Virus record (IMG/VR): IMGVR_UViG_3300020037_001525
Location: 25,938-89,937 of that record
From: a virus
Lineage: Duplodnaviria > Caudoviricetes
Length of the DNA: 64,000 nt
Strand: one strand, 5' to 3'
In this document: positions 29,586 through 48,006 of the stretch, one piece after another
How positions within the stretch are numbered: the first letter of the stretch is position 1
Layout: each line of letters begins with the position of its first letter
Notes under the pieces: model-generated
Seen by the model: only the letters and a program-made list of their open reading frames with translations
The model's database searches: none
Told to the model about the DNA's origin: nothing
Program-made: the position numbers and the translations under genes

Positions 29586-31139
29586 TTACATGAAGCTTAC
29601 TATGTCCCTCATGGATAATGTCGAATTATATAATACACGTCTTTTTACAGTAATTGGTTCTGTTTTCCATCCTACTTTCACCTTGAAGCTAATTTCTTCA
29701 ACATCATACGATTTTGCCGCCATTTTATCATATATGTTGTTGCTTTTCACTTCTTCTTTGAATGAACCAATTTTTTTAGTTGTTATATCAGTAGGTTCAT
29801 AATTCTTATTGAAGAAGTTGTACAGATTGTTGTCATCTCCTATTGCCATAGCAAGATTCTTCAAATCTTCTTCATTGTACTTTGCATAGGAATATTCTGA
29901 CTCCTTTTGTTTTTCTTTGAAAAACTTCTTTTTTGCATTGTCAGAACTAACTTTTGATAAAGATTTTGAAAATTGTGACACTGAATATTCCCCACTTGGT
30001 TCTATTGGAACTTTTGTGTCATCCTCTGGCATCGTCTTTATTCTTGAGAATAAGCCTTGTTCGATTGATTGCTTAGCAAAATCAATGTCAGAATCTGATA
30101 ATACACTATCTCTTAATGTATACTCCTTGCCACCTATTGACATTGCTACCCTGCCGTATTCATATCTTTTATTGCCACTATGGTCATCTTTATTCAAATA
30201 TCCATTGGCAATTCGGTCTGCCTCTACTTCTGTTGCCCCTTCTTCCAAAGCCTTAACATGAGCATCCATTTGTTTGTTGCCTTGGCTATGTTGCAAGTTC
30301 CTCAATGACTTAGCATAGGTGTTCCCTGCTTCATCTTTGATATGAGCTGTACCAAATTTATCCCACTTAGCATCATGCTTTAAACCATGTATTTTGCCTG
30401 TTACCTGCTTACCTTTGTGTTCAAAGGATACATGGTCGCCATGTGTGAACTCATGCTTTGCTCCGTCATCATGATGTCGAACGTAAACTGTTTGTTGGAC
30501 ACCTGCTTTGTTTGTGATGATTTTCTTCTCTAAGTGACTAACATCTTTCATAGCTTTCTCAAAGTCATCTTCTGTGATTTCACCTGATTCTAATGCTTTG
30601 TTGATGTCTGTGTGAAACTGAAGTATTGAGTCTTCTGTGAAGACCTCATAATGTTCTGATTTGGATAACTTATCAATCATTTGCTCTACAGTGTGTTCTT
30701 CACTATCCTCACCTGTTTTGTCTTCAAATTCTCTTTTCAGAGCATCTTCAGTTAAATTTTCGTAATGCGATCTCTTATCATACCCTTCATCATCTTTGTT
30801 GTCTTCTTCGCTGTCCATCACATGAGCATCGTCGTACTCTTTATCATTGAGTTCTGATGCTTGTTCTCTTTGATATTTGCCATATTCTATGTGTCTGCCT
30901 ACTTTATCATAATGCTTAGCTTTCTCTTCATGATCTTTCTTGGTCATGCCATGCTTGCTTACCTTCTGCCACTTGCCTTCAGCTACTTTCTTGTAGCCAT
31001 TGTGGACTGTACCAATAGGGAATGATTTGCCCTTTTCCAAATCAGTTTCCACTGCCTTGTTCATTTCTTCGGTTTGCTCTTCATCTTTGTTGATGAAATT
31101 GTTGAAAATTGCTTGTTTGCGGATATCGTTGATTGCCAT
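29586..31139 (-). CDS. Putative internal head protein (K-S/A/G motif family)
   Basis: Charged, His-rich; shares an approx 120 aa module with 31209..32645. Confidence 0.6.
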   Translation of the reverse strand: MAINDIRKQAIFNNFINKDEEQTEEMNKAVETDLEKGKSFPIGTVHNGYKKVAEGKWQKVSKHGMTKKDHEEKAKHYDKVGRHIEYGKYQREQASELNDKEYDDAHVMDSEEDNKDDEGYDKRSHYENLTEDALKREFEDKTGEDSEEHTVEQMIDKLSKSEHYEVFTEDSILQFHTDINKALESGEITEDDFEKAMKDVSHLEKKIITNKAGVQQTVYVRHHDDGAKHEFTHGDHVSFEHKGKQVTGKIHGLKHDAKWDKFGTAHIKDEAGNTYAKSLRNLQHSQGNKQMDAHVKALEEGATEVEADRIANGYLNKDDHSGNKRYEYGRVAMSIGGKEYTLRDSVLSDSDIDFAKQSIEQGLFSRIKTMPEDDTKVPIEPSGEYSVSQFSKSLSKVSSDNAKKKFFKEKQKESEYSYAKYNEEDLKNLAMAIGDDNNLYNFFNKNYEPTDITTKKIGSFKEEVKSNNIYDKMAAKSYDVEEISFKVKVGWKTEPITVKRRVLYNSTLSMRDIVSFM

Positions 31140-31208
31140 TGTTTCTTATTTTTGTTTTGTTATACCTGTTTAAGATTAATGAGACTGTTTTCTCTTATCC
31201 ATACCATC

Positions 31209-32645
31209 TTAATTGTTCTTGCTTGGTTTCTTAGCAAGTTTCTCTGCCATATCATAATGACCTTGAGCTGTTTCTGAATGTCTATTGGCTCTTTTAGGGT
31301 AATTGTTCATCATGGCTTTCACTGCATGTGCTGAATGAAATTGCGCTGCTTCTTTATGGTCTTGTGCTGTAAAACCATTGTAGTAATAATCATCTGCCTT
31401 GCGTTTCGCACTCACTCTCAATCCAGAAGTTGTTTCTCCTACATATCCTGGACCAGTTGGTATAGGTTTTGATTCTGTATTCGTCCTCGTTGTACCCAAC
31501 TTACCAGAACCTTTCAGGTTTGAAATTTGTCTGTTGGTTGCTTTCTCATTCTCCTCATTTTCTATGCTATCACGCAATTCTTTTTGTGACTCTTCATGTG
31601 TTTGTGGTTTCTCCTTTGACAAATTATTCATGTGGGTTGTAGTCGTTGTCTTCAATCCATCAAGTCTAATTTTTCTCATGCTTCCCTTTAGTGCAGTAAC
31701 CTTGCCTCTCCTTAGTTTACCACCATCATGCAACCAAACTTCTGAGCCAACTCCGTGTGGTACATCTGAATCTGGTTCATCATGCCCAGAAGCATCAAAG
31801 TCATGCTGTACAATAGCTTTCGATGGGTCAATTTTGTGCAATTCTTTTGTGGAAGGATGAACCCCCATCAAATTGCCTGTCTTCTTGTCATGACCAACAA
31901 CATGAACTAAATCATGCTTGTAACCATTCACACTTTGTGGATGTTGCATCAATACTCTCTGACCACGCTTCATCTGCACACCGAATTGGTCTTTTGTTCC
32001 TTGCTTCACATTATCGTGGTTGGCTGCGTGCTTTTTGATTTCTGATTTTAATTCTTCTGGCTTCATTTCTTCTTGTGTGTTTAATCTTGGTAAACCTCTG
32101 TCATCTTCAGAAGTATCTGGTGAAGAAGTTGCTGGTTTAGCTGTTTGCTCCAACTCCTTACCTTCTTCGTGGTGTTCTATACCTCTAAGAGACTTACTGT
32201 ACGTATTGCCCTTGTCATCTTTGATGTGAGCTGTACCGAATTTATCATAAACCTCATGATGTTTGAGTTTCGTGATATGACCTACTTTCTTGATACCTTT
32301 ATCTTCGAAAACAACTTTGTGTCCTTCGGAGAACTCATGCTTGTCACCGTTATCAGCATGTCTTGTATAGACTGTCTTCTGGTGACCATTTTTATCTGTA
32401 ATGGTTTTCTTTTCTAAGTTCGCTATATTTCTCATACCTTTGTTGAACTCTGAAGCATCAATCAAATTATCCTGAAATGCTTTCGTAAGGTCTGTCTGGT
32501 ATTGCTCCAAACCTTCTCTGGTATAGATTTCCACATGTTCATTTTGCTTTGAAACTTCTTTATTTTCAACTGATTTCTCAAACTGGGATGCTATATTCTC
32601 AGCGATTTTCTGTCTTCTTTCTTGTAGTGATTGTGCTATGTTCAT
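31209..32645 (-). CDS. Putative internal head protein (K-S/A/G motif family)
   Basis: Shared modules with neighbours; SH3/KOW-like segments. Confidence 0.6.
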   Translation of the reverse strand: MNIAQSLQERRQKIAENIASQFEKSVENKEVSKQNEHVEIYTREGLEQYQTDLTKAFQDNLIDASEFNKGMRNIANLEKKTITDKNGHQKTVYTRHADNGDKHEFSEGHKVVFEDKGIKKVGHITKLKHHEVYDKFGTAHIKDDKGNTYSKSLRGIEHHEEGKELEQTAKPATSSPDTSEDDRGLPRLNTQEEMKPEELKSEIKKHAANHDNVKQGTKDQFGVQMKRGQRVLMQHPQSVNGYKHDLVHVVGHDKKTGNLMGVHPSTKELHKIDPSKAIVQHDFDASGHDEPDSDVPHGVGSEVWLHDGGKLRRGKVTALKGSMRKIRLDGLKTTTTTHMNNLSKEKPQTHEESQKELRDSIENEENEKATNRQISNLKGSGKLGTTRTNTESKPIPTGPGYVGETTSGLRVSAKRKADDYYYNGFTAQDHKEAAQFHSAHAVKAMMNNYPKRANRHSETAQGHYDMAEKLAKKPSKNN

Positions 32646-32678
32646 TGTATTTTGTTTTATTATGATTGTTTATTTGTG

Positions 32679-33383
32679 TTAATTATAAACTCTTATTTCT
32701 ATCATTGTTCTTGCAAGAATATCATCAGCTAATACATCTGATGAGTTGTATGTCTGTATTAGTAGAGCACTTGTTGATATGAATGTTATGTTAATAGTTG
32801 AGCCATCCATTGTTTTATAGATTGCATTGTTAGGAATAAACAAATTGTCCTCTATGAATTTGTTCGCTGAGTTCAATCTATACTCACCAACGTCATTTCT
32901 TGCGATACCTGTGATACCAATAGTATCTTCAAGAACCAATGCTGTTGGAGCAGCTGTTGCTGATTGCGAGAGCATTGCTGTATAAGATTTGTATTGTACA
33001 GTATTAGCTATGTCAGCTAATATGATAGTCGCTATTTCTCTAATTGTGGTTGCTCCATAATCACCACTATCAACTTCATCCAAATTCTCTTTTGTAAGAT
33101 AATTCAACTCAAATACAACTCTGGTTGGATTTGGCATAGTTCTATCATTGTGCTTTATAATCAATGAAGAGTTGAGATTGCCTTCGATTTCAGCTACGAT
33201 ATCTGTAAATGGCTGTATAAACGCTGCTAACACCAATGGCACATATGTTATCACCTGTGATGGTAGTATTGGATTGTGTGGTTCATATGAAATTGTTATA
33301 TTCTCTAATGAATATACATTGATGACACCACTCCTATCAATTGTTATTGTTCTGTTCGTGTTATTTACTGTTATACTTGACAT
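32679..33383 (-). CDS. Putative structural protein
   Basis: Beta-rich, T/I/S-rich 234 aa ORF. Confidence 0.5.
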   Translation of the reverse strand: MSSITVNNTNRTITIDRSGVINVYSLENITISYEPHNPILPSQVITYVPLVLAAFIQPFTDIVAEIEGNLNSSLIIKHNDRTMPNPTRVVFELNYLTKENLDEVDSGDYGATTIREIATIILADIANTVQYKSYTAMLSQSATAAPTALVLEDTIGITGIARNDVGEYRLNSANKFIEDNLFIPNNAIYKTMDGSTINITFISTSALLIQTYNSSDVLADDILARTMIEIRVYN

Positions 33384-33408
33384 TTGTGAATTTTGTTTTT
33401 AGTATGTA

Positions 33409-35217
33409 TTAATCTTCTGTCTCGAATGCTTCTATGCCACCTAATCTTGTAAGCATCTTCTTATATGTAGGTATAAGTGTTCCAATTTGTTTGTCCATGT
33501 GGCTATCTCCACCTACTTTCCACACATTGGTTGCCATATTATCCATGGCATGACGCCCAACTGAACTTATAAGGAATGCGCCTATCTCTCTGTCATTTAA
33601 TCCTTTTTTACGGAGATAACCTTCTAATGCTGCATCACGCTCATCGTTTCTGTCATTGTGATATATTGCACCATATCCACCTGCGTAATTTTGGAATGCT
33701 GGAGATTCAAACACTGCTTTGCTGTAACCGCCTTGTTGGATGCCGTCTCTGTGTTCCATTGTGGATTTGTTGTTCTCTGATGCAATTTTATCAATTTGTT
33801 GTTTATATGACAACCCTTCTTGATCGTCTAAATAAGAACCCTTGCCAACATGTCTTTCCCATCCAAGCTTATCTGCTGACTTATCGCCTATCAATTTTGC
33901 TCCCTTTAATCGGTCAACCAATTTAGCTTTAATAGAGCTTGCGTCTCTGTGGTCAGTGGCTGTGAAATCTTTGTGATTTTCATGATCAAATGCTATGTGA
34001 ATGGGTTTACCAGAAGTTGTATTGCCTAACACTGCATCCCCACCCCTTTTCAGTGTTTTAGCAATTTCAATATCATCATTTGCTGCCTTCATCTTAGCAG
34101 CTATTTCTGGAACTGCTGCCATTGGGTTTGTTTCTAATTTCACATCTTTCCACATTTTATCAAATCTCACCCTGTTGATATGACTTAGTTGCGACACATG
34201 TTTAGCTACTTCAATCAGTTCATCATTTGATATATCCTTCTTCTGCATGATGCCGTTGGGATTGAATACTGTTGACTTTGCACTCCAACCTTCACCATCT
34301 TTCTTATATCCAAAGTGATTTGCTGCTTCTTCCCAATTATTCAACACCTTGCCATCGACCATGCTTCCGCTACTGTATCCGTGCTTCTCTGATATGTGAT
34401 TCTTCATTTGGTGGTCAGACATCTTTGTATTGTTGCTTACATAGATTGTTCTCACAACACCGTTCTTGTCGGTCATTGTTTTCTTTGTAAGATGAGACAA
34501 ATTCTTCATTCCTTTCTCAAAGTCTTCCTGAGATACTTCCTCAGACTCCATTGCTTTGTTGAGGTCTGTGATGTATTGTTGGATGGATTCTTCTGTGTAG
34601 AATTGGATGGATTTTTCAACTTTATTTCCTACGATGTTTGGTTGATTTGGTTTCTTTTTTATCAAGTGTATGTGAACTTCACCGTTGCTTCCAGAATCAT
34701 CTCTTTTTGTTATGAGAGATTGATGGTCTGGGAACTTCTTACTGAATACGCTTCTTATGTTGTCATTATCTCCCACATTACCTTTTTTTGTCACTAATTT
34801 CAATTTATGACCACCGTGACCATCATGTTCGTGCGTATGAACTCCATACGAATGGAACTGGTCTCCATAATGGTCTTTATCTATGCTTTGAACAGCACGC
34901 TTTGCTTCATCTAAATTTCTGATATCTTTCTTTATAGGTTTTATGTTATCCGCATTGTGCACTTTTCCATTTGATGAATATCTTAAATCATTTGCTTCCT
35001 TATGTTCACCTCTTGTGAAATCTTTGTGCAAATCAGGAACAGCACTTTGATATATAGGCTTACCACTTTTCGTATGTCCTATCACTTTACCACCTCTTGA
35101 TCCCTCTGCTTTTTCAAGATCATTGTCTATACCAATAAATCTGTCTGCTATTCCTTTGCGAAACGCTTGTTGTTTTGCTGCAATGGCTTGTTGCAATTGT
35201 TCTTGTATGTTTTTCAT
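33409..35217 (-). CDS. Putative internal head protein (K-S/A/G motif family)
   Basis: Carries the FYTEESIQQY..DLNKA..FEKGMK module and two G.T.SGKPI repeats. Confidence 0.6.
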   Translation of the reverse strand: MKNIQEQLQQAIAAKQQAFRKGIADRFIGIDNDLEKAEGSRGGKVIGHTKSGKPIYQSAVPDLHKDFTRGEHKEANDLRYSSNGKVHNADNIKPIKKDIRNLDEAKRAVQSIDKDHYGDQFHSYGVHTHEHDGHGGHKLKLVTKKGNVGDNDNIRSVFSKKFPDHQSLITKRDDSGSNGEVHIHLIKKKPNQPNIVGNKVEKSIQFYTEESIQQYITDLNKAMESEEVSQEDFEKGMKNLSHLTKKTMTDKNGVVRTIYVSNNTKMSDHQMKNHISEKHGYSSGSMVDGKVLNNWEEAANHFGYKKDGEGWSAKSTVFNPNGIMQKKDISNDELIEVAKHVSQLSHINRVRFDKMWKDVKLETNPMAAVPEIAAKMKAANDDIEIAKTLKRGGDAVLGNTTSGKPIHIAFDHENHKDFTATDHRDASSIKAKLVDRLKGAKLIGDKSADKLGWERHVGKGSYLDDQEGLSYKQQIDKIASENNKSTMEHRDGIQQGGYSKAVFESPAFQNYAGGYGAIYHNDRNDERDAALEGYLRKKGLNDREIGAFLISSVGRHAMDNMATNVWKVGGDSHMDKQIGTLIPTYKKMLTRLGGIEAFETED

Positions 35218-35219
35218 CT

Positions 35220-37328
35220 TTATTGATTAAATTGTAATTTGTATTTTAATTTTGCTCCTATACTGTACATCTCCTGTGCAAGATTTTCTACACCAATGAA
35301 ACCCATCTCTTCAGCATAATTCTCAACGTCAAACGCTAAAACAATTATATGCTCAGCAACACCATTTGGGTCTATACTATCACTGTAACTTTGTTTGTTA
35401 TTCACCATAACAATCATGGTGTTGAACTTATCCTTGCCGACAAGCCCAAGAAGTTGTTCAGCTATTGTATCTGTAAGAGAATCAAACTCTGATAGTGCCT
35501 CTCCAAATGCTTCATGTATCGGTTCACTTGCAGTCTTCAAGTGCACCCATTTAAGCCATACTTCCGTTTCATGCATTCTTGATATCAATGTAGACAATGT
35601 ATAATCATCAGTGCTATCTCTTTCAACCTCTACTACTGGCATTTCTTTAATGTAATCTTCTCCATTATCACCGACATCAACTCCTAAGTCTCCTAATGCT
35701 TTGATGATTTCATTGCTGTTAGATTTTGAAAATAACACCATGTCCTTAGCATCATGAACCCAATCAACTCCATCTTCTTTGGCACCATGTATAATATCAA
35801 GAAGACTTCCAACTGTACGAATATTCAAATCATTCGTTTTGTTTTTATACTTGTCAAGGAAATCAATGGCATCTTTCAAATCTGCTTGGTCGTACTTGAT
35901 ATCCTTGCCATCAGAGCCTTGAAACTTGATGTTATTGTATTCTTTGGTTTCAGGGTGTTGTGCTATATGTCGAATACGTTGTATTGTCTCGTCTGGAGTC
36001 ATCGTCATATCAACCCTCAAAGACCTTGATTTCAATGGTTGTGGCACTTTATTCGGTGGTAGGTTTGATATAAAAACTGCTCTACCATTGAAATTAAACC
36101 TGTTTGGTATTGGTTGCCCAAAGCTATCTTTCAATGGTCTCTGTGACGCATAAGCCACTGTTCCATCTCCTGAAGTATCTAATGCACCTTTCCACAAACC
36201 TTCATCTGTGTCTGTTATGGCAGTATCACAGTCATCAATCATCAATATCTTACCATTGTGTTCATACATTGCCTGATATAATCCAGCTGTAGTCGCTTTA
36301 CCTGTTATCTTTACATAATCATAATCATCACTACCCACTTCCATACCTTCTTTGAATTCACGCTTACCAAGTTTCTTCAATTCTTGTTGAACAGTGTATG
36401 TCTTGCCAACCCCACCTGTTCCGTATGATATTACAGATTTCATGCCACCCTTGCCAGAAGCCACAGAACGCACAAATCTTGCAAACGTATCAAAACGTCT
36501 GTTAATATCTCCTCTGCCTTCCTCTGCTTCATCTGCTTTCTTCTCACCAACTATCTTGTCTGCTGCTGCGTCTGCATCCAGTGGATTGTCCTTGTCTTTT
36601 TCTTCAGATTCTCCATCTTTCTTGTCACCTCTACTTTCAAGTTCCTTTTCAGCTATTTTCTTGATGTTTTCATCTTTTGTGGTCTTGATAGTGTTCTCTA
36701 AGCCACCTCTCGATGCTTTCTTAGCGAAATTTTGTAAATCTTCTGGAGAGTGTTTTGGTTCTTCCTGTTTCTTACTACCTTCTCCATGAGGACTATCGAA
36801 CTGATGTGGATGCTTGTTGATTGTCTGTCCACCATGTTCTTTATCAAGTTTAATTGCATATTCTCCTGTTTTGCCAACGCTACCAACAGTTCCTGTTACT
36901 TTGCTTCCCTTATGTTCAAGTTCTACCTTAGAACCATGTTCTGCGTGTTCTCGGTTGCCTTTGTTTGGGTCAACCCAACGATGCATCATCTTACCATTAA
37001 CATTCACTTCTTTCAAGACAAGATGTGAAGTATTGAGTTTGCCACCTTTCTCAAAGTAATCATCATCTTCAAATGATTTACTAACAATATCACACAAATC
37101 GTTGACTTGGTGCATGTGGTCTTCGTGGTAGTTCTGCATAAACTCCTTCACTGATTCTTTGCTACCGTAATGGCTGTCTTTTTCTCCATCTTCTGTCATC
37201 CAATCATGATATTCCTTCTTCAATTGTTTAACATCAATATCTTCACCTTTTTGTAAATTATTATCAATAAAAGATGACGCTATACGTTGCGCCTTACTGT
37301 CCCCAATATTAAAGTTTGTCAGATTCAT
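35220..37328 (-). CDS. Multidomain protein: AAA-type ATPase plus C-terminal ferritin/Dps-like domain
   Basis: Walker A GTGGVGKT, Walker B MIDDCD, FISN, LKSRS; C-terminal WVHLKT..IHEAF..FDSLTDTIAEQLLG four-helix pattern. Confidence 0.7.
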   Translation of the reverse strand: MNLTNFNIGDSKAQRIASSFIDNNLQKGEDIDVKQLKKEYHDWMTEDGEKDSHYGSKESVKEFMQNYHEDHMHQVNDLCDIVSKSFEDDDYFEKGGKLNTSHLVLKEVNVNGKMMHRWVDPNKGNREHAEHGSKVELEHKGSKVTGTVGSVGKTGEYAIKLDKEHGGQTINKHPHQFDSPHGEGSKKQEEPKHSPEDLQNFAKKASRGGLENTIKTTKDENIKKIAEKELESRGDKKDGESEEKDKDNPLDADAAADKIVGEKKADEAEEGRGDINRRFDTFARFVRSVASGKGGMKSVISYGTGGVGKTYTVQQELKKLGKREFKEGMEVGSDDYDYVKITGKATTAGLYQAMYEHNGKILMIDDCDTAITDTDEGLWKGALDTSGDGTVAYASQRPLKDSFGQPIPNRFNFNGRAVFISNLPPNKVPQPLKSRSLRVDMTMTPDETIQRIRHIAQHPETKEYNNIKFQGSDGKDIKYDQADLKDAIDFLDKYKNKTNDLNIRTVGSLLDIIHGAKEDGVDWVHDAKDMVLFSKSNSNEIIKALGDLGVDVGDNGEDYIKEMPVVEVERDSTDDYTLSTLISRMHETEVWLKWVHLKTASEPIHEAFGEALSEFDSLTDTIAEQLLGLVGKDKFNTMIVMVNNKQSYSDSIDPNGVAEHIIVLAFDVENYAEEMGFIGVENLAQEMYSIGAKLKYKLQFNQ

Positions 37329-37584
37329 TGTTTAATTTTTGTATAAATACTGTGAATAATTTTACTCCATGTTCATTTGTAACTACACTCTTGTTCATTC
37401 TATGACACTCTAACAAAGCTTCTCTGTATTCATTGCTATTAATCTCATCATCATCATACGATTTCTTCAAATCTTCATTGTATCTTGTCATATCCTTTTG
37501 AGTGAAAACAGCAATCTCACCAGCCTTCATCTGTTCATTGAGAAGATTGATGGTTATTTCTTTGCTATCACTTAATTCTGCCAT
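37309..37584 (-). CDS. Small protein consisting of the shared head-protein module alone
   Basis: IAVFTQKDMTRYNEDLKKSYDDDEI..NEHGVK aligns with the module of the three larger proteins. Confidence 0.6.
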   Translation of the reverse strand: MAELSDSKEITINLLNEQMKAGEIAVFTQKDMTRYNEDLKKSYDDDEINSNEYREALLECHRMNKSVVTNEHGVKLFTVFIQKLNNESDKL

Positions 37585-37616
37585 AGTTCAAATTTAAAGT
37601 CTTAATAGCTGTTTCA

Positions 37617-39497
37617 TCAAAACACAAATTCTGATAAACTTCTATCAACGACATTGTTAACGATTGTATCATCGTCTGTATTATCGATTGCTTGCTGTGC
37701 AAGGTTATGCATCTTTATACCTTTATGTATCCATGAACTTGGGTCAGATAAAGCACTTACTGTTCTGAAACTGTTGTACGTTGATTGTTGTGCTCCGCTT
37801 GGGAATGTCTTGAGACTTCTTACAATACCTTCATATATTGAAGACTTATGAACATAAGCATCAAAGGTCTTGCCTAAATTATTTGATGTTTCTGCTCTGG
37901 TCTTCTTTTGCAGAAATTCGACTGCCAAATCCTTGAAACCTATTCCTTCATTATTTCCTTTTGTCTTCAAAATCGCATAGATTTCTGGTGGAAGAACGCC
38001 AGAAAAAATCTCATTCTCACCGATTGCTCCTGTTGTTGCCCACCTGAATGGTATGCTTATGTACCAATTACCTTTCTTTGACATCTTGACCTTAGAAGAT
38101 TTTGCAAATCCTGAATTGTGTGTAACGATACCAGCTGCTATGTAGCTTGAGTCATCTTCAACTGTTAAATTATATTTATAATAATGTGCACGTGAAGAAT
38201 CATTTGTTATGTCTATTTTTTCAATCTCAAAATTATGTTGTAGAAAACTATAATTATCATTATGATTATCCAACACTCTTTCTATCTCATTCTTACATTC
38301 ATTGAGTTTGGAATACACTTCCTTACTCCAAAATGATATATATCTCCAACCAGCTGCTTCCACCTCGCTTTTCTTAGTCTCATCTTGTTCTTTTGTGTGC
38401 CAATATTCGCCATTAACCTCAATACATATCTTATGTTTAGGTATAGCAAAATCAAAATAATAAAATCTGTTTCTATTCATAGCCTCACATCTAACATTTC
38501 TTTCAAATTGAAATTGTCTTTCGATGCCTTCTATATTGTTTATTACATTCCATAATACTGATTCTGGGTCTGTGAACTTGTTTTTCTTTCCAAGACTTAC
38601 TGCTGCCTTGTATTGTAATTCCTTGCCCTTCTCATCATCTATTGTTCCAAATCCCCAATCACTATTATTCTTAGCATTATTTTGTATCCAATTGTTTAAT
38701 AGTCCAGTTTGTGTAACATGAGTTCCATTCTCTATTGATTTTTTATTCAATTCTATGACGGCATTCCTTAATTTCTCACATGTTTCTGGTTTAAGATATG
38801 GTTTACCATTATCTTTTCTTGATAAATTACTACCTGTAGCTGAGCACGACTTTGAACAATATCTTTTCTGTTCAAACTTATCAGTGAACATTCTTGATAT
38901 GCGCTTACCACAAACACATTTATTAGCTATTGTGAATAACTTGTGTTTGTCTTCAATAAGATTCTCCGCTTTAACCCATCCTGCATTCGTAAGTATGGGA
39001 TGGTTTCCAGTGACATATAAACTTTTTGTTTGGTCTCTATTAGAATATATTGGTGTTATTTTGTACACAAATCTATCATCATTCAATTCTTTGAACAATC
39101 CAGAAACTCTTTTAAATTTACCAGAATGTGTCAAAACCAAATCTCCTACTTTAATATCACATATCTTAACATTGCCTTTAGATGTATATATCAACGTATT
39201 TCTATTCGTGATACACTTCATATCAAATGCTGTAACTCCGTTCTCCAGCATATTGTTGAATCTGCCTACTAATTGTATGCCTGCGTTGCCTTCCCCAAAA
39301 TCTATGATTTTCAATCCTTTTATGTAATTGCTTCTTGTAGAATTCAATTCTTTTTCAGCAGCAACAACCCAGTTTCTATGTACTTCTAATGCGAGTGCCT
39401 GTTTAACGGATTCAACCATCGTCCTGACTTGGTCATTATTAAGTTTGAATTCATCAAGAATTTCACTGAGGTCGATATTGATTTTTAATGCTTGCAA
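37617..39497 (-). CDS. Putative neck/head-tail joining protein interrupted by an intein
   Basis: Exteins (aa 1-94 and the last 165 aa) join as AFDMK|SGFAKSSKVK; position among neck genes. Confidence 0.7.
   Translation of the reverse strand: MQALKINIDLSEILDEFKLNNDQVRTMVESVKQALALEVHRNWVVAAEKELNSTRSNYIKGLKIIDFGEGNAGIQLVGRFNNMLENGVTAFDMKCITNRNTLIYTSKGNVKICDIKVGDLVLTHSGKFKRVSGLFKELNDDRFVYKITPIYSNRDQTKSLYVTGNHPILTNAGWVKAENLIEDKHKLFTIANKCVCGKRISRMFTDKFEQKRYCSKSCSATGSNLSRKDNGKPYLKPETCEKLRNAVIELNKKSIENGTHVTQTGLLNNWIQNNAKNNSDWGFGTIDDEKGKELQYKAAVSLGKKNKFTDPESVLWNVINNIEGIERQFQFERNVRCEAMNRNRFYYFDFAIPKHKICIEVNGEYWHTKEQDETKKSEVEAAGWRYISFWSKEVYSKLNECKNEIERVLDNHNDNYSFLQHNFEIEKIDITNDSSRAHYYKYNLTVEDDSSYIAAGIVTHNSGFAKSSKVKMSKKGNWYISIPFRWATTGAIGENEIFSGVLPPEIYAILKTKGNNEGIGFKDLAVEFLQKKTRAETSNNLGKTFDAYVHKSSIYEGIVRSLKTFPSGAQQSTYNSFRTVSALSDPSSWIHKGIKMHNLAQQAIDNTDDDTIVNNVVDRSLSEFVF
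38115..39215 (-). mobile_element. Intein (367 aa) with embedded DUF559/Vsr-like endonuclease
   Basis: Starts CITNRNTLI (Cys1, codon 39213-39215); IKVGDLVLTH; block B VTGNHPI; ends YNLTVEDDSSYIAAGIVTHN followed by Ser+1; internal FDFAIPKHKICIEVNGEYWH nuclease motif. Confidence 0.92.
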
Positions 39498-40786: not shown

Positions 40787-41589
40787 ACATCGAATTTTAT
40801 TCCTGAATAAATACCTTTCAATCTTTGTACATCAGCTTTCAATCTCTCACCGAACCCCTTCATTCTATCAGAGAATATGTTGCCACCATTGATTTTACTT
40901 GTTGACTGGCTCAGCCCATCAAGACTTAATGATTGTGAAGCTAATCCAAATGTTGTTGCGTTTCCACCACCTATTGACAATTCTATTTGTGGCAATACAT
41001 ACATCGATGCAACTAAACCAACAAGCTCAATCAATTCTTCTGGAACCTGTTTGAATCCTGTAACGTAATGTATTTGCCAATAATTTGGTAATTGTCTTGT
41101 ACCAAAATAACTAAAGTAGTGTGGATAATATGTCATCAATTGATGAAATGTTATCGAAGCACTACCATTAGGCACTATATATATGGTGTTGTGAGGAGTA
41201 TCAGCGTTGTCTCTTCTGTGTGAAATCCACTCTGCAGGGTATGTTATCACTGGTCTCTCATTCAGTCTCCCCTTCAATGAACATACGCTTAATACTGGCC
41301 ATGAAGCCTTCAAGAATCCAAATTGCTGGAATTCTTCTTTTACGTAATCCTTTTGTTCGAGTATTGTTTGTTGGTTGAGTTTTATACCTAATTCATTCTC
41401 AATACGCTGTTGCGCTGCTAATATCCTTTGTGATATGAAATCATCTGATATAGTCTCACCTGTGTATGGATTGCAAAGTGGTATTCCTTGCAACCACTGT
41501 TCCTTGAACTCAAAAGAACTGAATAACAGCGATTTTGCTCCTCCATATTCTTTCCAATTGGTTACGAAATTCTGTTTAACTGTTGCCAT
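40780..41589 (-). CDS. Putative head-tail connector protein
   Basis: AAQQRIENELGIKL..IHYVTGFKQVPEEL pattern; position after capsid. Confidence 0.6.
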   Translation of the reverse strand: MATVKQNFVTNWKEYGGAKSLLFSSFEFKEQWLQGIPLCNPYTGETISDDFISQRILAAQQRIENELGIKLNQQTILEQKDYVKEEFQQFGFLKASWPVLSVCSLKGRLNERPVITYPAEWISHRRDNADTPHNTIYIVPNGSASITFHQLMTYYPHYFSYFGTRQLPNYWQIHYVTGFKQVPEELIELVGLVASMYVLPQIELSIGGGNATTFGLASQSLSLDGLSQSTSKINGGNIFSDRMKGFGERLKADVQRLKGIYSGIKFDVC

Positions 41590-41604
41590 TGAAAATGATA
41601 ACTG

Positions 41605-42024
41605 TTATTTGAATAGATTCTTCTTGAGGAAAGTCCTCAACGCTTTCTCATTATTCTTCATCGTTCTCCACTTCAAATCTGTCTGACCAGCTATCTCATT
41701 CAATTGCTCTAAATTCATGGCATCCAAATCCTCTGGTGTGATTTCGACATTTTCCTGCTCTTCATCTTCTTCATTCTCATCGTTTGCTTTTGTGTCTGTT
41801 GCATCAACATCAACATCTTTCTTCACAACAGTCTCTTTCTTTTGTGACATCTTAGCAGTCATAAGGTAACTCCAGTCTTCTGAATTGTCCACTACAAGAG
41901 CAGCAATTTCTTCTGGTACTGATACAACGCCTTCAGCGTCTGTAGAAACCTTCTCAGTCATGTCTGGAAAGTTTAATGTCATGTTAAGACATTTTGCATT
42001 GATAATTTTTACAGTTTTTGACAT
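41605..42024 (-). CDS. Hypothetical acidic protein
   Basis: 139 aa; C-terminal LDAMNLEQLNEIA resembles a small helical (HeH/Rho-N-like) motif. Confidence 0.6.
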   Translation of the reverse strand: MSKTVKIINAKCLNMTLNFPDMTEKVSTDAEGVVSVPEEIAALVVDNSEDWSYLMTAKMSQKKETVVKKDVDVDATDTKANDENEEDEEQENVEITPEDLDAMNLEQLNEIAGQTDLKWRTMKNNEKALRTFLKKNLFK

Positions 42025-42046
42025 TTTATATTGTTTTTAATTTTTA

Positions 42047-42087
42047 AGAAAAACAAATGGTGGCTTTGCTTTCACATCACCACCATT
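42047..42087 (-). terminator. Terminator-like hairpin after major capsid gene
   Basis: AATGGTGG (42056-42063) / CCACCATT (42080-42087), then a T-rich run on the minus strand. Confidence 0.55.
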
Positions 42088-42115
42088 GTTATTTAGTTTA
42101 ACTTTGCGAATTTAT

Positions 42116-43603
42116 TTACGCTATTGTGTCTCCAATATTCACGAACACTATGAAGCGACGGATATTGTACAAGAAAGGTGTACCATAAAGCAACATCATG
42201 AATCGATATGCTGGAGATGTTACAGCCAAGTCCATTTTCATCAACGGAGCAAGTTGTTTGAACTCAAGTACATCTGTGTCAAACTGGCACAAGAACGCTT
42301 TATCTGTGTTCGCCATCCAACGGTTGTTGTCTCTGATTTTACCTGCTGCACCTAAATCATAGCCTGCAGTCAATTCAGCAAGACTTACAGTAAACAAAGG
42401 ATACATTGTTGAACCAGCTGGTGTAGCTGCACCTTTCTGTGAACGATAGATAGTGAACGCTGTAGCGTTGTAAGTCGAAGCAGTTCCTGTGAACTGTAAA
42501 TCCACTGCACCGCCAGCTACAACAGTTGTAGGAGTAACATCAAGGATTGTCATCGCTGAGTCTCCGTATTTGTTGTTACCAACAACACCATATATGTAGT
42601 TACCTGCATCGCCTGCAGCGAACACCGAATAAGCAGAAGAACCGACAGCAGCAGTTGGCGTACCACCTACAGTTGGAGCATTTGGAGCACTTGTGTGGGT
42701 TGCAGGTGCATTGTACAATTTGGTTGGTTTCTTATTGAAGAACACATCCCAATTCAAACCGATGTTACCGAATTGGCTTTCGAAGTTCTTCACTGATTGG
42801 CCAATGGTTGCATTTTGAATTGCTCCTTGTTGTCCAACACCAACAAATTTGTTACCATAGAAATTTTTCACGAAATTGCTCAACACCTTTGGTGGCGCAT
42901 ACAATTCAGTTCCACGACCAAAGTTTTCTGCAATTGTATTAGCAGCACTTTCGATTGCAGACTCTGTAAGAACTGAACCTCTCAAGTCAACAACAAGACC
43001 ACTGTTGAAGTAATCATTGATTGTTGCAAATTGGTCATTCTTCTTGTGTTGGGTCAACAAACCATTGAATTCTTCAGGCACTAATTTTTCATCAGCATCA
43101 TACAAACCTTTATCAAGTTTGCGCAAAATCCAAAGTGTACCATTTTGAATTTCTTTCTCCACAATGTTTCCGATTTGTGTATTGACTAAACTCATAGGAT
43201 GAGTTACACTTTTGGTAACACCTAAGAATTTAACCAATTGAGAACGACGGATGTAAGTAGAATCTTCTTCTTGCGGAAGTTCACCCTCTCCATTGAAACC
43301 ACCTCTATCAGCACCATAAGAAGACAACTGATTGTACTCCTCTACAGTGTTATAGGCAGCAGCCTTTGGAATATTTTTCCACAATGTAACCTCATCTTTC
43401 GTGTGGGTCAACACTTTAAGTGTCTTCTCTAAGGATTCAACCTTCAAAGGAGCACCTGATGCAGTTGTTAAGTTTAGTGTGCTTTGACCAGTTGTGTCTC
43501 CTGCGGAGAGTGCCTTGTTCAATTCACCCAACTCCTGTTCTGAAGTGCCAGAGCCGAACATTGCGTTCGAATTTGATACTTGGTAGTCAGCTAATGTAAT
43601 CAT
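42116..43603 (-). CDS. Major capsid protein (SPO1/Twort-like)
   Basis: GAPLKVESLE..VTLWKNIPK..NTVEEYNQ..GELPQEEDSTY resembles phage K/A511-type capsid precursors as recalled; downstream of the protease. Confidence 0.9.
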   Translation of the reverse strand: MITLADYQVSNSNAMFGSGTSEQELGELNKALSAGDTTGQSTLNLTTASGAPLKVESLEKTLKVLTHTKDEVTLWKNIPKAAAYNTVEEYNQLSSYGADRGGFNGEGELPQEEDSTYIRRSQLVKFLGVTKSVTHPMSLVNTQIGNIVEKEIQNGTLWILRKLDKGLYDADEKLVPEEFNGLLTQHKKNDQFATINDYFNSGLVVDLRGSVLTESAIESAANTIAENFGRGTELYAPPKVLSNFVKNFYGNKFVGVGQQGAIQNATIGQSVKNFESQFGNIGLNWDVFFNKKPTKLYNAPATHTSAPNAPTVGGTPTAAVGSSAYSVFAAGDAGNYIYGVVGNNKYGDSAMTILDVTPTTVVAGGAVDLQFTGTASTYNATAFTIYRSQKGAATPAGSTMYPLFTVSLAELTAGYDLGAAGKIRDNNRWMANTDKAFLCQFDTDVLEFKQLAPLMKMDLAVTSPAYRFMMLLYGTPFLYNIRRFIVFVNIGDTIA

Positions 43604-43642
43604 GTTTTTTGTTTGTTTGTTTAAAATGTTTGTAATAGTGTG

Positions 43643-43657
43643 TTATAACTGTTTGCT
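43643..43657 (-). promoter_or_regulatory. Conserved upstream motif CAGTTATAA (candidate late promoter) before major capsid gene
   Basis: Exact copies also at 28162-28170, 29563-29571 and 61503-61511, each in a short intergenic gap. Confidence 0.55.
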
Positions 43658-43662
43658 CAAGA

Positions 43663-45369
43663 TTATACCTTACCACCTGTCAACTCTTCAACCATTGCCT
43701 TTACTTTGTTTGTAAGATTGTTGGTTGTTTCATAGCTTATAAGTGATTTAGAAATTTCTTCATCAAATCCTTTCTCAAATGTCAATTTCTCAAGAGCATT
43801 CAATACCTGTGATTTTGACAATTTGTTAGTTTGAGTATCTCTGTTACCAGAAAGTTCATCATTACCAACACCTTTTTCAAAGGTACGTTCAACTGCTCGC
43901 ACTACTGATTTTCTTTGCATTGGTGCACTTGATAGTTCATCAATCTTCTCATGTGACTTCTGTATTTCATCACGCAATTCAAGAACTTCATTCTGTAATG
44001 ACTTCATTATCTTGTCGTTACCTTCTTTTATTTCATCGAACAATCCCTTGAGCAACTTGCCCATGCTTGTTCCTTGTTTAGATATTTGGTCTGACAATGA
44101 CTTCTCAACTTTATTGTACATTTCATCATCACTCATAGGCTTTTCCTCTTCTTCATCATCCTCTTCTTCCTCTTCTTCCTCTTCTTCAGAGTCGTCTTCA
44201 GTTTCCTCTTTCTTCTTTGGCTTACTTGCTGGTTTGTCTGTGTTGTCATCAGAATCACCGTCAGAATCATCTTCAGCAGAATCATCGCTACCATCATCAC
44301 CCTTAGAAATTTTTGTATCCGTTGTCTCTTGTTCATCAAGAGAATCCTCTTCTTCAGAGTTGTCTTCACCCTTATTCAATGAGTCTGCGCCTAATTCTTC
44401 AAGTGCTTTGTTGATTAGGTCTCTGTTTGATGGTTTTTGTTCTGTTTTAGCTATTGCCATGATATTAAGTTTTTGTTGAATATTGTTATATATTGAGTCT
44501 GCTTGTTCAAAACTAATAACTGAATCAGACTTCAATATTTCTTGCATTAACTCTTCATCCATTGATTTCTGTAAGTCCTTCAGATTCTTGTCTACATGTT
44601 CTTTGCGCAAAGCACCACCACTGCCAACCTCTGTGCTCAGTGCTTTATCAATCGTGACACAGTAATTGTTATCAACCATGATTCTAACACCATCTGGTCT
44701 TGTTATGTCAACAATCTTGTCGTGTGATTCTTTGCCCTTATCTCCACCATTCCTGTTTTCTTGTATATTACCATCAATAGCATCCAAATCATCACCCTTC
44801 TCAATTTCTTCATTGATATCCTCAATGATTTCATCGATACTCTTGTTGATATCTGTAGATGTATTGTCGAATTCATGAAAATTACCCTTAATGATATCAA
44901 CGATGCTATCAGGATTCTTTGGAGATATTGTTAAAGCTATGTTAGTTATCATAGCCTTTGTAACCTTTGATTTGTCTAATGGGTCTCTTTCTGTAGCTTT
45001 ACCTTCTACAGAATAGCCAAGTCTTCTTGTTTTACTATTCTTCTCAAGCGTTTCTGCTAATTCCCATACTGATTTTGATAATGCATTATCAGGATACAGC
45101 ATAGACTCTACATATAAACCACCACTTCTTTTCTCAACCTTAGTTGGTTCTCCTATTACTGCATCTGGTGATTTATTGTGGTTCCAATTCACAATGCCCT
45201 TTTCTTTCAAATAATCAATGTCAAAGTTGCTTGGGTCTAATGATTCGCCATCAGTATCTCTTCTGCTTGTTGATGCCATCCCACCAAGTTTCATTACAAC
45301 ATTTCCATTGTTGTCCTTTGATTTCTTAATCTTGTCTAATGGTATCCAAAATCTGAAGTTATTGTTCAT
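43663..45369 (-). CDS. Prohead protease with acidic scaffold-like C-terminal region
   Basis: GMAST..DTDGE..GIVNWNH..GYSVEGK..NIALT..PKNP protease motifs, then acidic/coiled-coil tail. Confidence 0.85.
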   Translation of the reverse strand: MNNNFRFWIPLDKIKKSKDNNGNVVMKLGGMASTSRRDTDGESLDPSNFDIDYLKEKGIVNWNHNKSPDAVIGEPTKVEKRSGGLYVESMLYPDNALSKSVWELAETLEKNSKTRRLGYSVEGKATERDPLDKSKVTKAMITNIALTISPKNPDSIVDIIKGNFHEFDNTSTDINKSIDEIIEDINEEIEKGDDLDAIDGNIQENRNGGDKGKESHDKIVDITRPDGVRIMVDNNYCVTIDKALSTEVGSGGALRKEHVDKNLKDLQKSMDEELMQEILKSDSVISFEQADSIYNNIQQKLNIMAIAKTEQKPSNRDLINKALEELGADSLNKGEDNSEEEDSLDEQETTDTKISKGDDGSDDSAEDDSDGDSDDNTDKPASKPKKKEETEDDSEEEEEEEEEDDEEEEKPMSDDEMYNKVEKSLSDQISKQGTSMGKLLKGLFDEIKEGNDKIMKSLQNEVLELRDEIQKSHEKIDELSSAPMQRKSVVRAVERTFEKGVGNDELSGNRDTQTNKLSKSQVLNALEKLTFEKGFDEEISKSLISYETTNNLTNKVKAMVEELTGGKV

Positions 45370-45399
45370 TTAAAATAATTTATTGTGTTATATCTGTTT

Positions 45400-48006
45400 T
45401 TAATCAGTGGTTGAGAATCCAGGATGTTCTTTGTATGGGTTTTCATTATACGACACAATCTCCATTTTATTGAATGGAACCACGTCATACTGTTTTGATG
45501 GATTTTCCTTCTTAGCTTTCATCCAATCAATGAAGTCTCCCATAGTTCCTGTTGATGGCTCTTTTGTTTTCCAATGTATCTTAACAATTGTGTTCTTGTC
45601 AATAGGAGAAGGTCTGTTCTCTCTGATTTTCATCTGAATGTTCGTTCGTATGAGCAAATCTGTATAAAAATCCTTTACAGACATATCTCCTAAGTCTACA
45701 TCGTCTATATTTTCAAAGAATTTTATATATTTTGACTTATCGGCTTCAAACTTATCATGTTTAAACTGTAGTTCCCTTTTGCGCAATGCGTTGTTCTTAG
45801 CTTCAACTTCCTCTGCCATTCTCTTCTGCTCCTCATGCACTATCTTGCGACCAATGTCAGTGTTAAGTGTTTTATGCAATTCGTCTCTTGTGCTGGAATC
45901 TCTTGCATGTAAAGCATTTGTAACATCAGAGTACATGTCAATGTATTCTTTGCTTTCATCAGTAGGTTTGTAATCGTGATATATCAAGAATTGACTATTA
46001 TGACGATTGTTGATTCCGTCATATTCCTTGCGTGTTTGTTCATAATTACTTTCCTGTTTAGTCTTCTCCTTGATTAGCTTATTTCTGTATGCTTCTTCAT
46101 CTGGATGAAGATGGAAGAAGTGCTTATGTTCGAATGTTTCGTTGCTTGTTCCTTGATAATTGCTTCTGCCAAATGTTTTTGTTAATCCTTGGTATGGTAA
46201 CGTCTTCACATATACCTTCCTGCCATTGATTTCAATGTCTGAATTGTCATCTTTCTTACCTTCTGACAGAGATAATAAGTGTTCATCATAATGTGCTCCG
46301 ATTGTATGTAGATTGAACTTCTTTGTTTTTGTAGGGTCTTTATCACTGCCTACCTTCATCATTCTTGTGAAATTAGTGCCTTTCTTGTTTGTAACTTCCA
46401 CAGGAGCAATGTATTTAGATTTTGATAATACATCATCAATAGCTTTGCTGATAAGACCATACTCTCTCAATAATCTCAATCTTTCTTCTGTTGAAACCTC
46501 ATGTAACTCACCTGAATCTCTATCATCTTTATTATGCTGACAACAGTATTGGAAGAATTCTTCTCCCTGTAATGCTTCATCCCACTTCCTGTTAATGAGT
46601 TTAGTCCAACGTGGATTAGTATCTTCTGATTTTTCTATGGTCTCTTGCAATATAGCACCCTTCAATTTTATTTGTTCGATGTATTGTTCAAGTCTTTCAT
46701 TTCCATAGTACTTCATATCTTCACTGTTCTCACCTTTAATAAGTTCGACACCAAATTGGCCATTACCGATATTAAGATGTACGATTATCTTATTATTGTC
46801 TTCTGTGTTAAACTCCATAACTCCTTGCTCTTCTGATTTTGATATCGAATCTTCATATCCCTCACGTTCAAAATCAAATAGATTATACTCATCACATTGC
46901 TCTTCATCATCCTCATCAATGTCAATGCCAAGTGTTTGAACTGTATTATACGTTATTATGTCATCAAGAGGCATATAATCAGTATCTATGTAATCTACAG
47001 CCTTTAACAAGTCTTCACTAAGTCCTAAAGTATTCAACCATTGTTTTCTAACAATAGGGTGCACATAGGCAGTTTCTGCCATCTTTGGTGTATTGTTGAG
47101 TTTCTGTGAAACTATCTTATACATATTAGCAAGTGTAGCAACCACTAACCTTCTATCTTTCTTAATATCTCCTGTTAATTGTTCTTTGACTTGGCTTGTG
47201 TGTTCTTGTAACGTCTTGTTGCCTAAATCAGTAGCAACATATGTTCTCATATCCTTTATCTTGAGATTCTTGAATCCATACTTGTTCTTGAATATCTTGT
47301 CAACAAAAGTTCTGTCCATACTGAACAAACGTGGATGTTCACTCTTAATCCTTGTAGCTTTCAACTTCTTCAAATAAGCACTCAATTCTGGTTCTCCTGT
47401 GATTTCTCCAGTATTGTTCTTGTATGATTTACCAATGAATTCAAAATTTATGTCACCACTCTTGTTTATATTGAGGTTGTCAACACCCAATGTAGAAACT
47501 CCCATATTACCAGTCTTTTCAAATCCAGCTGTTTGACCAACACGCAAACCTGTATGTGCTATAATCAACAATATAGCAGCTGCTTCTGCGAATTTAGGAT
47601 TGCTGTTTGATAGGTCTGCTCTGGCTTTGTTCTTGATGTTCTCCACAGTGTTTGCGTCTACATTAGCAATTCTATCCCACTTTACAAGAGCATTCCTGTT
47701 CAAAAATTCCTTAGTGTATGCTCTGATTTTTGTGTTGGTTTTTGGGTCTGTCCATGACATAACACACTTACTATTGAATTCTTCTGGGTTCGTAATATCA
47801 ACGTGTATTTGTACATCTTTCTTGTCTACACCTACTGGAAGCCTTGTTAAACCTATCCCTGCGAACTTATCATACCATTGTGGTTGACGCACTGCTTTAG
47901 GTTTGCTCTTATTCTTCTCATTAGATACTAATTTCTTCACAAGATGACCTTTCTTGTCAGTGTGTATTTCTATGTGGTTCTTGCTTCTGTCTATTGCTTT
48001 ACTCAT
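45400..48006 (-). CDS. DNA topoisomerase IB domain fused to a long uncharacterised C-terminal region
   Basis: Catalytic set GLRVG (R), FIGKS (K), KDMRT (R), LNNTP (N as in bacterial TopIB), AYVHP (Y). Confidence 0.82.
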   Translation of the reverse strand: MSKAIDRSKNHIEIHTDKKGHLVKKLVSNEKNKSKPKAVRQPQWYDKFAGIGLTRLPVGVDKKDVQIHVDITNPEEFNSKCVMSWTDPKTNTKIRAYTKEFLNRNALVKWDRIANVDANTVENIKNKARADLSNSNPKFAEAAAILLIIAHTGLRVGQTAGFEKTGNMGVSTLGVDNLNINKSGDINFEFIGKSYKNNTGEITGEPELSAYLKKLKATRIKSEHPRLFSMDRTFVDKIFKNKYGFKNLKIKDMRTYVATDLGNKTLQEHTSQVKEQLTGDIKKDRRLVVATLANMYKIVSQKLNNTPKMAETAYVHPIVRKQWLNTLGLSEDLLKAVDYIDTDYMPLDDIITYNTVQTLGIDIDEDDEEQCDEYNLFDFEREGYEDSISKSEEQGVMEFNTEDNNKIIVHLNIGNGQFGVELIKGENSEDMKYYGNERLEQYIEQIKLKGAILQETIEKSEDTNPRWTKLINRKWDEALQGEEFFQYCCQHNKDDRDSGELHEVSTEERLRLLREYGLISKAIDDVLSKSKYIAPVEVTNKKGTNFTRMMKVGSDKDPTKTKKFNLHTIGAHYDEHLLSLSEGKKDDNSDIEINGRKVYVKTLPYQGLTKTFGRSNYQGTSNETFEHKHFFHLHPDEEAYRNKLIKEKTKQESNYEQTRKEYDGINNRHNSQFLIYHDYKPTDESKEYIDMYSDVTNALHARDSSTRDELHKTLNTDIGRKIVHEEQKRMAEEVEAKNNALRKRELQFKHDKFEADKSKYIKFFENIDDVDLGDMSVKDFYTDLLIRTNIQMKIRENRPSPIDKNTIVKIHWKTKEPSTGTMGDFIDWMKAKKENPSKQYDVVPFNKMEIVSYNENPYKEHPGFSTTD

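Follow-up and report, generated by a model that had tools for sequence, protein, structure and literature searches.

The window analysed here comprises 64,000 nucleotides (positions 25,938 to 89,937) of the IMG/VR virus record IMGVR_UViG_3300020037_001525 and carries the head module of a large myophage, uncultured and related to SPO1, of the Bacteroidota type. A short motif recurs in several of its proteins, and [hydrophobic]-x-Lys/[Ala/Gly/Ser] (cut after Lys) is very probably the cut site of the head-maturation protease, as judged from the protease-scaffold fusion protein, the major capsid protein (MCP) and the relatives of both. Six further proteins, including one with a type IB topoisomerase (TopIB) core and one with AAA and Dps-like domains, were examined as candidate cargo of the head. 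The reading that we favour, with moderate confidence, is that a Lys-specific S78-type protease matures the head and also trims cargo proteins that are tagged with a leader and a module of ~65 amino acids (aa) and would be loaded in the procapsid. The coordinates of all features are collected in Table 1.

The motif was searched as [ILVF]-x-K-[SAG], and expected numbers were obtained from composition-preserving shuffles (5000 per test). The protease-scaffold fusion contained 21 copies, against 2.44 expected (0/5000 shuffles; Poisson 2.5e-13). An earlier note, made from the letters of this DNA, had put this number at about 15, which was too low; every copy that it named was found in the sequence. 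The six candidate cargo proteins, when pooled, contained 29 copies against 13.9 expected (2/5000 shuffles, p about 3e-4). Copies beyond the earlier list were FSKS in the 517-aa protein, FRKG and VGKG in the 602-aa protein, LWKG in the AAA/Dps protein, and INKS and IGKS in the TopIB protein. Enrichment over composition-matched controls, the absence of which the earlier note had named as a refutation, holds in the scaffold and in the pooled cargo. The portal (2 copies, 1.96 expected) and the NUDIX hydrolase (1 copy, 0.56 expected) showed no excess, and the rest of the 90-kb genome was at expectation (90 copies, 88 expected). Among the cargo proteins, only the TopIB protein was individually nominal (8 copies, 3.2 expected, p about 0.013). 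Because the cargo proteins have a module in common, many of their copies are not independent; 7-9 of the 29 lie at two conserved positions of this paralogous module. Counting within the window therefore proves the point for the scaffold only.

Homologues of the fusion protein showed the same excess. The 76 orthologues from related viral contigs had 993 scaffold sites (195 expected) and 120 database homologues had 2084 (378 expected), each of the 120 being enriched at least 4-fold. K, E, D and S abound in both the scaffold and the cargo proteins, which are mostly helical or disordered, and the excess might accordingly be a by-product of composition, or of amphipathic or coiled-coil periodicity in Lys-rich acidic helical proteins. 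However, composition-keeping shuffles yielded 2.4 copies, not 21. When other residues were scanned at P1 with the same flanks, K (5.07-fold) was the sole enriched residue; E, which is commoner than K, reached 0.54-fold, and D (0.25-fold), R (1.35-fold) and Q (1.67-fold) likewise had no comparable excess. The Lys-only enrichment excludes a charge or heptad artefact. Moreover, the non-motif Lys residues of the same proteins lack the site context described below. Because of the P1 scan and this within-protein Lys control, we rejected the artefact explanation as highly improbable.

The sites were distributed over 157 alignment columns, only 8 of which were near-universal, and 137 columns were used by <20% of the proteins. 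About half of the scaffold sites were lineage-specific, with density kept. Homologues at 30-40% identity shared ~9 of the 21 sites of the window protein, yet had ~16 sites each. This turnover analysis was used in place of an "unalignable scaffold" control, which was weak since the scaffold regions of 113/120 homologues could be aligned. These findings indicate that selection acts on the possession of many sites. The predicted scaffold fragments have a median length of ~21 residues. One site, I159-I-K161/G162, was occupied in 120/120 homologues and sits exactly at the border between protease and scaffold. In the protease domain, His64, Ser120 and Glu122 were invariant in 120/120 homologues; His64 and Ser120 are presumably the catalytic residues, by analogy with HK97 gp4. 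Pfam Peptidase_S78 (PF04586) matched the protease at 17.6 bits, below the 21-bit cut-off (E 0.0045), and no solved structure was found by sequence search.

In MCP, the 30 N-terminal residues are predicted to form a propeptide that ends at L28-N29-K30/A31, the position given in the earlier note. The L-x-K-A sequence was invariant in 79 orthologues and in Bacteroides phage DAC16, and the residues that precede it varied freely. The site is located a few residues from the mature N-terminus of the capsid protein Cps of Listeria phage A511. The cut of A511 Cps between Lys23 and Ser24, which the earlier note had given, is supported by the GenBank record, in which the mat_peptide starts at codon 24 (...A-L-K/S-F). 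The portal has putative K-sites at both ends: L-I-K40/A near the N-terminus, and NP-F-E-K545/A ~10 residues before the C-terminus, behind a hypervariable acidic tail. Both were kept in four other portals, including those of the distant contigs L090 and L091. The scaffold excess, the Lys specificity, the site turnover, and the capsid and junction sites together give good support to the earlier proposal that the prohead protease would cut at K/[SAG].

A side observation concerns DAC16 itself. The second gene past its capsid gene, DAC16_206 (L001:22298-24019), encodes a 573-aa hypothetical protein in which the motif occurs 9 times (2.4 expected, p about 8e-4), and is a candidate processed head protein in a cultivable phage.

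The context of the sites was scored at auxiliary positions only (P6-P4, P2 and P2'-P5'), none of which is motif-defining. The score was trained on scaffold homologues, with the window protein and two close (>70% identical) relatives excluded. In the six candidate cargo proteins, motif Lys residues scored +1.37 and other Lys residues -2.37 (p=3e-8). The remaining proteins of the genome showed no such difference, with scores of -1.74 and -1.67 for the two classes (p=0.69). The held-out window scaffold scored like the candidates, and the signal persisted when module sites were left out (19 sites, p=1.8e-5). The cargo enzymes probably enter the capsid and undergo trimming inside it. The earlier claim that enzymes are released from precursors thereby gains indirect support for the TopIB and AAA/Dps proteins, from the extended site context and from the placement of sites in linkers and at junctions, but not for the NUDIX hydrolase. 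The single match in this hydrolase (I-S-K8/A, residues 6-9) provides no statistical support for its membership in the processed set, and its sole link to the set is a fusion of NUDIX to TopIB in five homologues elsewhere.

The feature that unites the cargo proteins, a shared leader followed by the ~65-aa module, was missed in the earlier note. Five of the six carry the module: the 517-, 478-, 602- and 91-aa proteins and, weakly, the AAA/Dps protein. In an AF2 model of residues 1-110 of the 478-aa protein, the module was folded as beta-alpha-alpha-beta-beta with pLDDT above 90, and a leader helix and a disordered stretch lay ahead of it. The second half of the module is strongly basic. Leader sites of the module proteins in the window were located at residues 22-37. 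A search of a 1.84-billion-protein library with the module profile gave 170 matching proteins, 41-2258 residues long, with the module mostly 25-50 residues from the N-terminus. Their leaders (n=94) were poorly conserved in sequence, yet had 113 sites against 12.8 expected, and 82/94 had at least one; many showed an N-I-A-x-x-F helix motif. The two K-sites of the module ranked with its best-conserved columns, K being found in 107/125 copies at one and in 118/125 at the other. In unrelated contigs, four stereotyped sites occurred at about residues 15, 38, 62 and 76, and module genes adjoined portal, scaffold, capsid or TopIB genes; one such contig encodes a protease domain of 71% identity, joined to a scaffold that has 20 sites (3.6 expected). 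The Pfam domains fused to the module in the library were ART-PolyVal, PBECR3, SNF2/ResIII, N6_Mtase/Eco57I, RadC, lysozyme, InPase, TopIB (three times) and DUF5856 (twice). The window's own cargo (TopIB, AAA, DUF5856 and unassigned domains) includes no hallmark polyvalent Pfam family.

The module had no match in Pfam, PHROG or (by Foldseek) PDB, and its BFVD matches were uncharacterised viral proteins only. The cargo domains of the module proteins gave no PHROG or Pfam matches and no usable atlas matches, and the 602-aa protein gave no family, atlas or fold match. The C-terminus of the scaffold was considered as a further module copy, since it has the same L-x-K-[SA]...F-E-K-G spacing of 14; it was rejected because the profile hidden Markov model (HMM) of the module, made from its copies across the library, did not match it (--max, E up to 50).

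The AAA/Dps protein was compared with a dereplicated set of 38 orthologues, ~27% identical to it. An N-terminal [IL]-x-K/A was present in 39/39 aligned sequences, the window's own included; in the orthologues it closes a peptide of 8-12 residues. The linker between the AAA and Dps-like domains was hypervariable in length and sequence, yet always had 2-6 K-sites. The degenerate module of the window protein was detected by the module HMM with E 6.5e-4.

In the TopIB protein, the pentad R155/K193/R254/N305/Y314 was invariant in 17 homologues; Asn at the His position of the pentad (N305) also occurs in bacterial TopIB. Six central sites were kept in two orthologues (73-77% identity), with indels beside several of them, and the site just past the TopIB core was present in 16/17 homologues, down to 30% identity. 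In N-terminally extended TopIB fusions (with NUDIX and others), a K-site directly precedes the TopIB homology, and in one of them L-E-K/A aligns with the M-S-K/A start of the window protein. AF2 predicted folded blocks at residues 41-330, 468-519 and 557-863, with the central sites in or at the segments between them: the Lys of 5/6 was in segments with pLDDT<50 and the sixth was 3 residues ahead of one (binomial p about 8e-4). For this protein the earlier statement that copies tend to sit at domain borders therefore holds. Two motif matches inside the TopIB core were buried in the model.

Two other features of the TopIB protein were observed. An acidic peptide, I-D-x-D-E-D/E-E-E-x-C-D-E-Y-x-L-x-x-F/W, follows the core in nearly all 17 homologues (in the window, residues ~336-390; 46840-47001). 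Homologues that end with TopIB have it as well, and in the longer proteins a K-site flanks it on either side. It may serve in docking, or in autoinhibition as a mimic of DNA. A basic beta-hairpin, D-K-x-G-x(3-5)-[VW]-[YW]-V, recurs in TopIB residues 11-27 (47926-47976), in residues 108-120 of the AAA/Dps protein (36969-37007) and as the C-terminal hairpin of the module, and may be a small shared DNA- or capsid-binding element. The module HMM did not match the TopIB protein at residues ~505-555, where there is only a visual likeness of a D-K-x-G beta-hairpin.

Several results weigh against the reading that we favour. After paralogous sites were collapsed, the cargo count fell to 22 against 13.9 expected (p about 0.03), which is weak by count alone. 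Both K-sites of the module fall within helices, in a domain whose fold is predicted with confidence, and may therefore be conserved for folding, structure or binding rather than for cutting. Other conserved matches are in plainly catalytic or structural places: GVTKS in MCP, the match IGKS191 that contains the invariant catalytic Lys193 of TopIB, and the Walker A sequence G-[VI]-G-K-[ST], through which the AAA orthologues match the motif. Conservation alone is therefore not proof of cleavage. In its deep part the TopIB alignment was shallow (3-7 sequences), which itself lowers pLDDT. The capsid site of A511 has Ala at P3, not [ILVF], so the hydrophobic P3 rule is specific to the present clade. 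Finally, the module was not found within 10 kb of the MCP genes in the 80 nearest relatives, nor in a cultured phage (tblastn of P0135 against 50,697 phage records).

The collapsed count, the individual significance of TopIB alone, the helical module sites and the catalytic or structural matches would all fit an alternative in which the motif is a protease site only in the canonical head proteins (protease-scaffold, capsid and portal), and the matches in the cargo are structural or binding residues of the module plus chance, with no processing. This explanation leaves out that non-module sites of the candidates keep the scaffold-type extended context, that the 94 library leaders have a 9-fold excess of sites in otherwise unconserved sequence, that the hypervariable AAA/Dps linkers conserve the motif only, with varying copy number, and that sites occur at fusion junctions and in low-confidence linkers. 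We therefore regard it as unlikely.

A second alternative accepts processing and packaging but has the proteins serve the virion rather than be injected, as an inner scaffold or inner body or in the handling and protection of DNA in the head: TopIB would relax or anchor DNA, the Dps-like domain would protect it, and the AAA+ domain would act as a remodeller. Each of the three domain types (TopIB, Dps-like and AAA+) binds DNA or acts on it, the basic second half of the module agrees with such a role, the cargo genes lie inside the head module between portal and tail genes, and the inner body of phiKZ-like phages is built from processed paralogous head proteins (PMC5694885). However, the same leader and module are fused elsewhere to host-directed conflict-type domains (ART-PolyVal, PBECR3 nuclease, SNF2 with methylases, and lysozyme), and Iyer et al. 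2017 (PMC5512222) read such domains as delivered effectors. This alternative is not very likely in our view, although it deserves some weight. Head packaging and injection of the cargo are suggested by gene position, by polyvalent-type cargo in other phages, and by parallels with T4 and phiKZ-like phages.

Under the reading that we favour, head assembly would proceed as follows. The acidic scaffold, with a serine protease of HK97/S78 type (His64, Ser120) attached to it, would co-assemble into the procapsid. The protease would cut after Lys at [FILMV]-x-K/[AGS], with E, S or Q preferred at P2 and no Pro at P2', and would free itself at the universal I-x-K/G junction. The scaffold would be chopped to ~20-residue peptides, the 30-residue capsid propeptide removed, and the portal trimmed at both ends. 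The leader and module are most likely a capsid-targeting pro-region, which would bring the enzymes joined to it into the procapsid and afterwards be cleaved off. Cuts at linker sites would split the TopIB polyprotein into TopIB and its C-terminal domain, and the AAA/Dps protein into the AAA ATPase and the Dps-like domain. The leader and module are present in at least 170 protein clusters of uncultured phages. A more general proposal, that they form a portable, self-removing capsid-loading tag for arbitrary enzymes (TopIB, AAA/Dps, lysozyme, ADP-ribosyltransferase, nucleases and SNF2-methylases), which a Lys-specific S78-type protease removes at four stereotyped sites, in a cargo-delivery system parallel to the T4 capsid-targeting sequence (CTS) and MuF fusions, is put forward tentatively, as its chance of being correct seems to us somewhat less than even.

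Table 1. Head-module features of the window, with the parts of each protein listed below it.
Feature	Position	Strand	Basis
Portal	50062..51726	-	phrog_12
868-aa protein with type IB topoisomerase core	45400..48006	-	Pfam Topoisom_I, 63 bits
TopIB core, residues ~1-335	47002-48006	-	PF01028, 63.1 bits vs 23.7-bit cut-off
TopIB protein, linker region, K-sites at 333, 388, 422, 457, 519, 527	46420-47001	-	motif and AF2
TopIB protein, C-terminal domain without assigned function, residues ~557-863	within 45400..48006	-	AF2 folded block
568-aa protease-scaffold fusion	43663..45369	-	phrog_1028, E 3e-44
Prohead serine protease domain, residues 1-161 of 568	44887..45369	-	phrog_1028, E 3e-44 over residues 2-157
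Acidic scaffold domain, residues 162-568, 16 further K-sites	43663..44886	-	site counts
Major capsid protein (MCP)	42116..43603	-	phrog_752, E 1e-74
Predicted MCP propeptide	43514-43603	-	
NUDIX hydrolase, 162 aa	40298..40786	-	phrog_1198
Intein-bearing virion protein	37617..39497	-	family search
91-aa protein, no family match	37309..37584	-	module copy by paralogy
Stand-alone module copy, residues 20-89 of the 91-aa protein	37309..37584	-	HMM E 3e-17
AAA/DUF5856 (Dps-like) protein, 702 aa	35220..37328	-	phrog_1250, phrog_168, phrog_858; Pfam AAA and DUF5856 weak
AAA/Dps protein: leader ending L-Q-K27/G; degenerate module 77-123; AAA+ ATPase; linker; DUF5856/Dps-like C-terminal domain	35220..37328	-	profile searches
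AAA/Dps protein, double K-site linker F-S-K535/S and I-I-K543/A	35697-35732	-	motif
602-aa protein, no family match	33409..35217	-	module by paralogy and HMM
602-aa protein: leader sites F-R-K21/G and L-E-K36/A; module 201-268; C-terminal part unassigned	34414-34617 (module)	-	
478-aa protein, no family match	31209..32645	-	module by paralogy and AF2 model
478-aa protein: leader helix 3-23 ending F-E-K24/S; disordered 24-39; module 34-102; small beta-rich repeats	32340-32546 (module)	-	
517-aa protein, no family match	29586..31139	-	module by paralogy and HMM
517-aa protein: leader sites M-N-K28/A and L-E-K36/G; module 160-228	30456-30662 (module)	-	

Every long open reading frame of the 90-kb phage contig is on the minus strand. 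Among annotated phages, Bacteroides phages DAC16-23 and SJC03 (167-179 kb) come closest, with a capsid that is 44% identical; the next nearest by capsid are SPO1-like Herelleviridae (~36% identity). Behind the portal gene come five genes that are small or unidentified, next the TopIB gene, and after it the protease-scaffold and MCP genes; the same order was found in the related contigs L084, L088 and L090.

Inteins were found in two genes of this region. The window's intein-bearing virion protein (37617-39497, minus strand) has a 367-residue intein (Cys95 ... His-Asn461 / Ser462) that contains a DUF559/Vsr-like endonuclease. Its L084 orthologue (260 aa) is intein-free and is followed by a free-standing NUMOD3 endonuclease gene. 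In the AAA/Dps orthologue of L084 (L084:15984-19328), a LAGLIDADG intein of 355 residues interrupts the Walker A loop (GGVGK / A...THN / TYTVQ); the window copy has none. This difference indicates that inteins have invaded different head-cargo genes in sister phages.

Two neighbouring genes of the minus strand were also examined. A 300-aa protein encoded between the portal and TopIB genes (47999-48901) had no family match and 0 motif copies (1.5 expected). Its C-terminus, C-x-x-C ... H-P-F-C-R-C, is presumably typical of MuF/SPP1 gp7-type minor head proteins. Immediately upstream of the portal, 52383-53339 encodes a 318-aa phrog_2396 protein. In contigs L084, L088, L090, L091 and L093, a gene of similar size (317-349 aa) at the same position matches Pfam HMUDK_hel and has ADDT and HMUDK_HMUD1 genes as neighbours, so that thymidine is probably hypermodified in these phages.

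The principle of this system is already known from T4 (CTS and gp21) and from phiKZ and SPN3US, as is the post-Lys cleavage of A511 Cps. In the literature searched, we found no description of a generalised Lys motif or of its punctuation of enzyme polyproteins, nor of the leader and module family, nor of TopIB or AAA-Dps proteins as probable head cargo. If our reading is correct, capsid cargo and cut positions could be read from sequence alone in many uncultured gut and environmental phages, and dozens of "hypothetical" head-module genes would become candidate delivered enzymes. The candidate payload includes a virion-borne type IB topoisomerase, an enzyme that poxviruses are otherwise known to carry in their virions. 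Standard tryptic proteomics cannot see a cut after Lys, and such processing has therefore probably been overlooked in SPO1-like phages. A defined loading tag, if real, would also be a possible tool for packaging foreign proteins in phage heads, in laboratory strains.

In T4, the prohead protease gp21 acts on internal proteins IPI-III and Alt, which carry the CTS (Mullaney and Black 1996; reviewed in PMC9026906). The proposed system resembles that of T4 in having a short N-terminal targeting peptide that would be removed after loading and has the cut motif of the protease (hydrophobic-x-acid in T4) at its end, a scaffold degraded to small peptides, and trimmed capsid and portal-vertex proteins; T4 cargo includes the injected enzyme Alt. 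It differs in that P1 is Lys rather than Glu, and in that the protease is S78/HK97-like and fused to the scaffold, whereas gp21 belongs to S77. The CTS of T4 has 10 residues; its predicted counterpart here would be a leader helix with a folded ~65-aa module and four stereotyped sites.

In phiKZ, 201phi2-1 and SPN3US, the prohead protease (gp175/gp245) recognises a consensus motif, at which it processes head and ejection proteins that are paralogous (PMC10052503, PMC5694885, PMC7411985). Families of paralogous head proteins with N-terminal propeptides bearing several motif copies, and a self-cleaving protease, are likenesses to the system proposed here; in phiKZ and SPN3US many proteins are packaged with the DNA and ejected. 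However, the motif there is small-x-Glu and the protease is T4-like, and mass spectrometry has located the cleavages (14 sites in nine proteins of SPN3US), whereas ours are predicted. The cargo (TopIB and AAA/Dps-like) and the shared module also differ.

A511 and other Herelleviridae have the same capsid family (36% identity to SPO1-like capsids) and share the order of the head genes (portal, protease, scaffold, capsid). According to its record annotation, A511 Cps is cleaved behind Lys23, with Ser as the next residue, and the A511 scaffold gp85 likewise holds many x-S-K-S repeats. In A511, however, the protease and the scaffold have a gene each, and Ala occupies P3 of the capsid site; no cargo set or leader and module are known in this group.

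For polyvalent proteins, fusion to MuF or portal has been proposed as the packaging determinant, and embedded zincin-like (MPTase) peptidases have been proposed for processing (PMC5512222). The module was not matched by LPD or other Pfam families. Like polyvalent proteins, the module proteins are encoded among virion genes, are fused elsewhere to ART-PolyVal, PBECR3, SNF2, N6 methylase and RadC domains, and are predicted to be delivered with the DNA. They differ in that the leader and module would be the packaging determinant, and the prohead protease, acting at Lys sites, would perform the processing.

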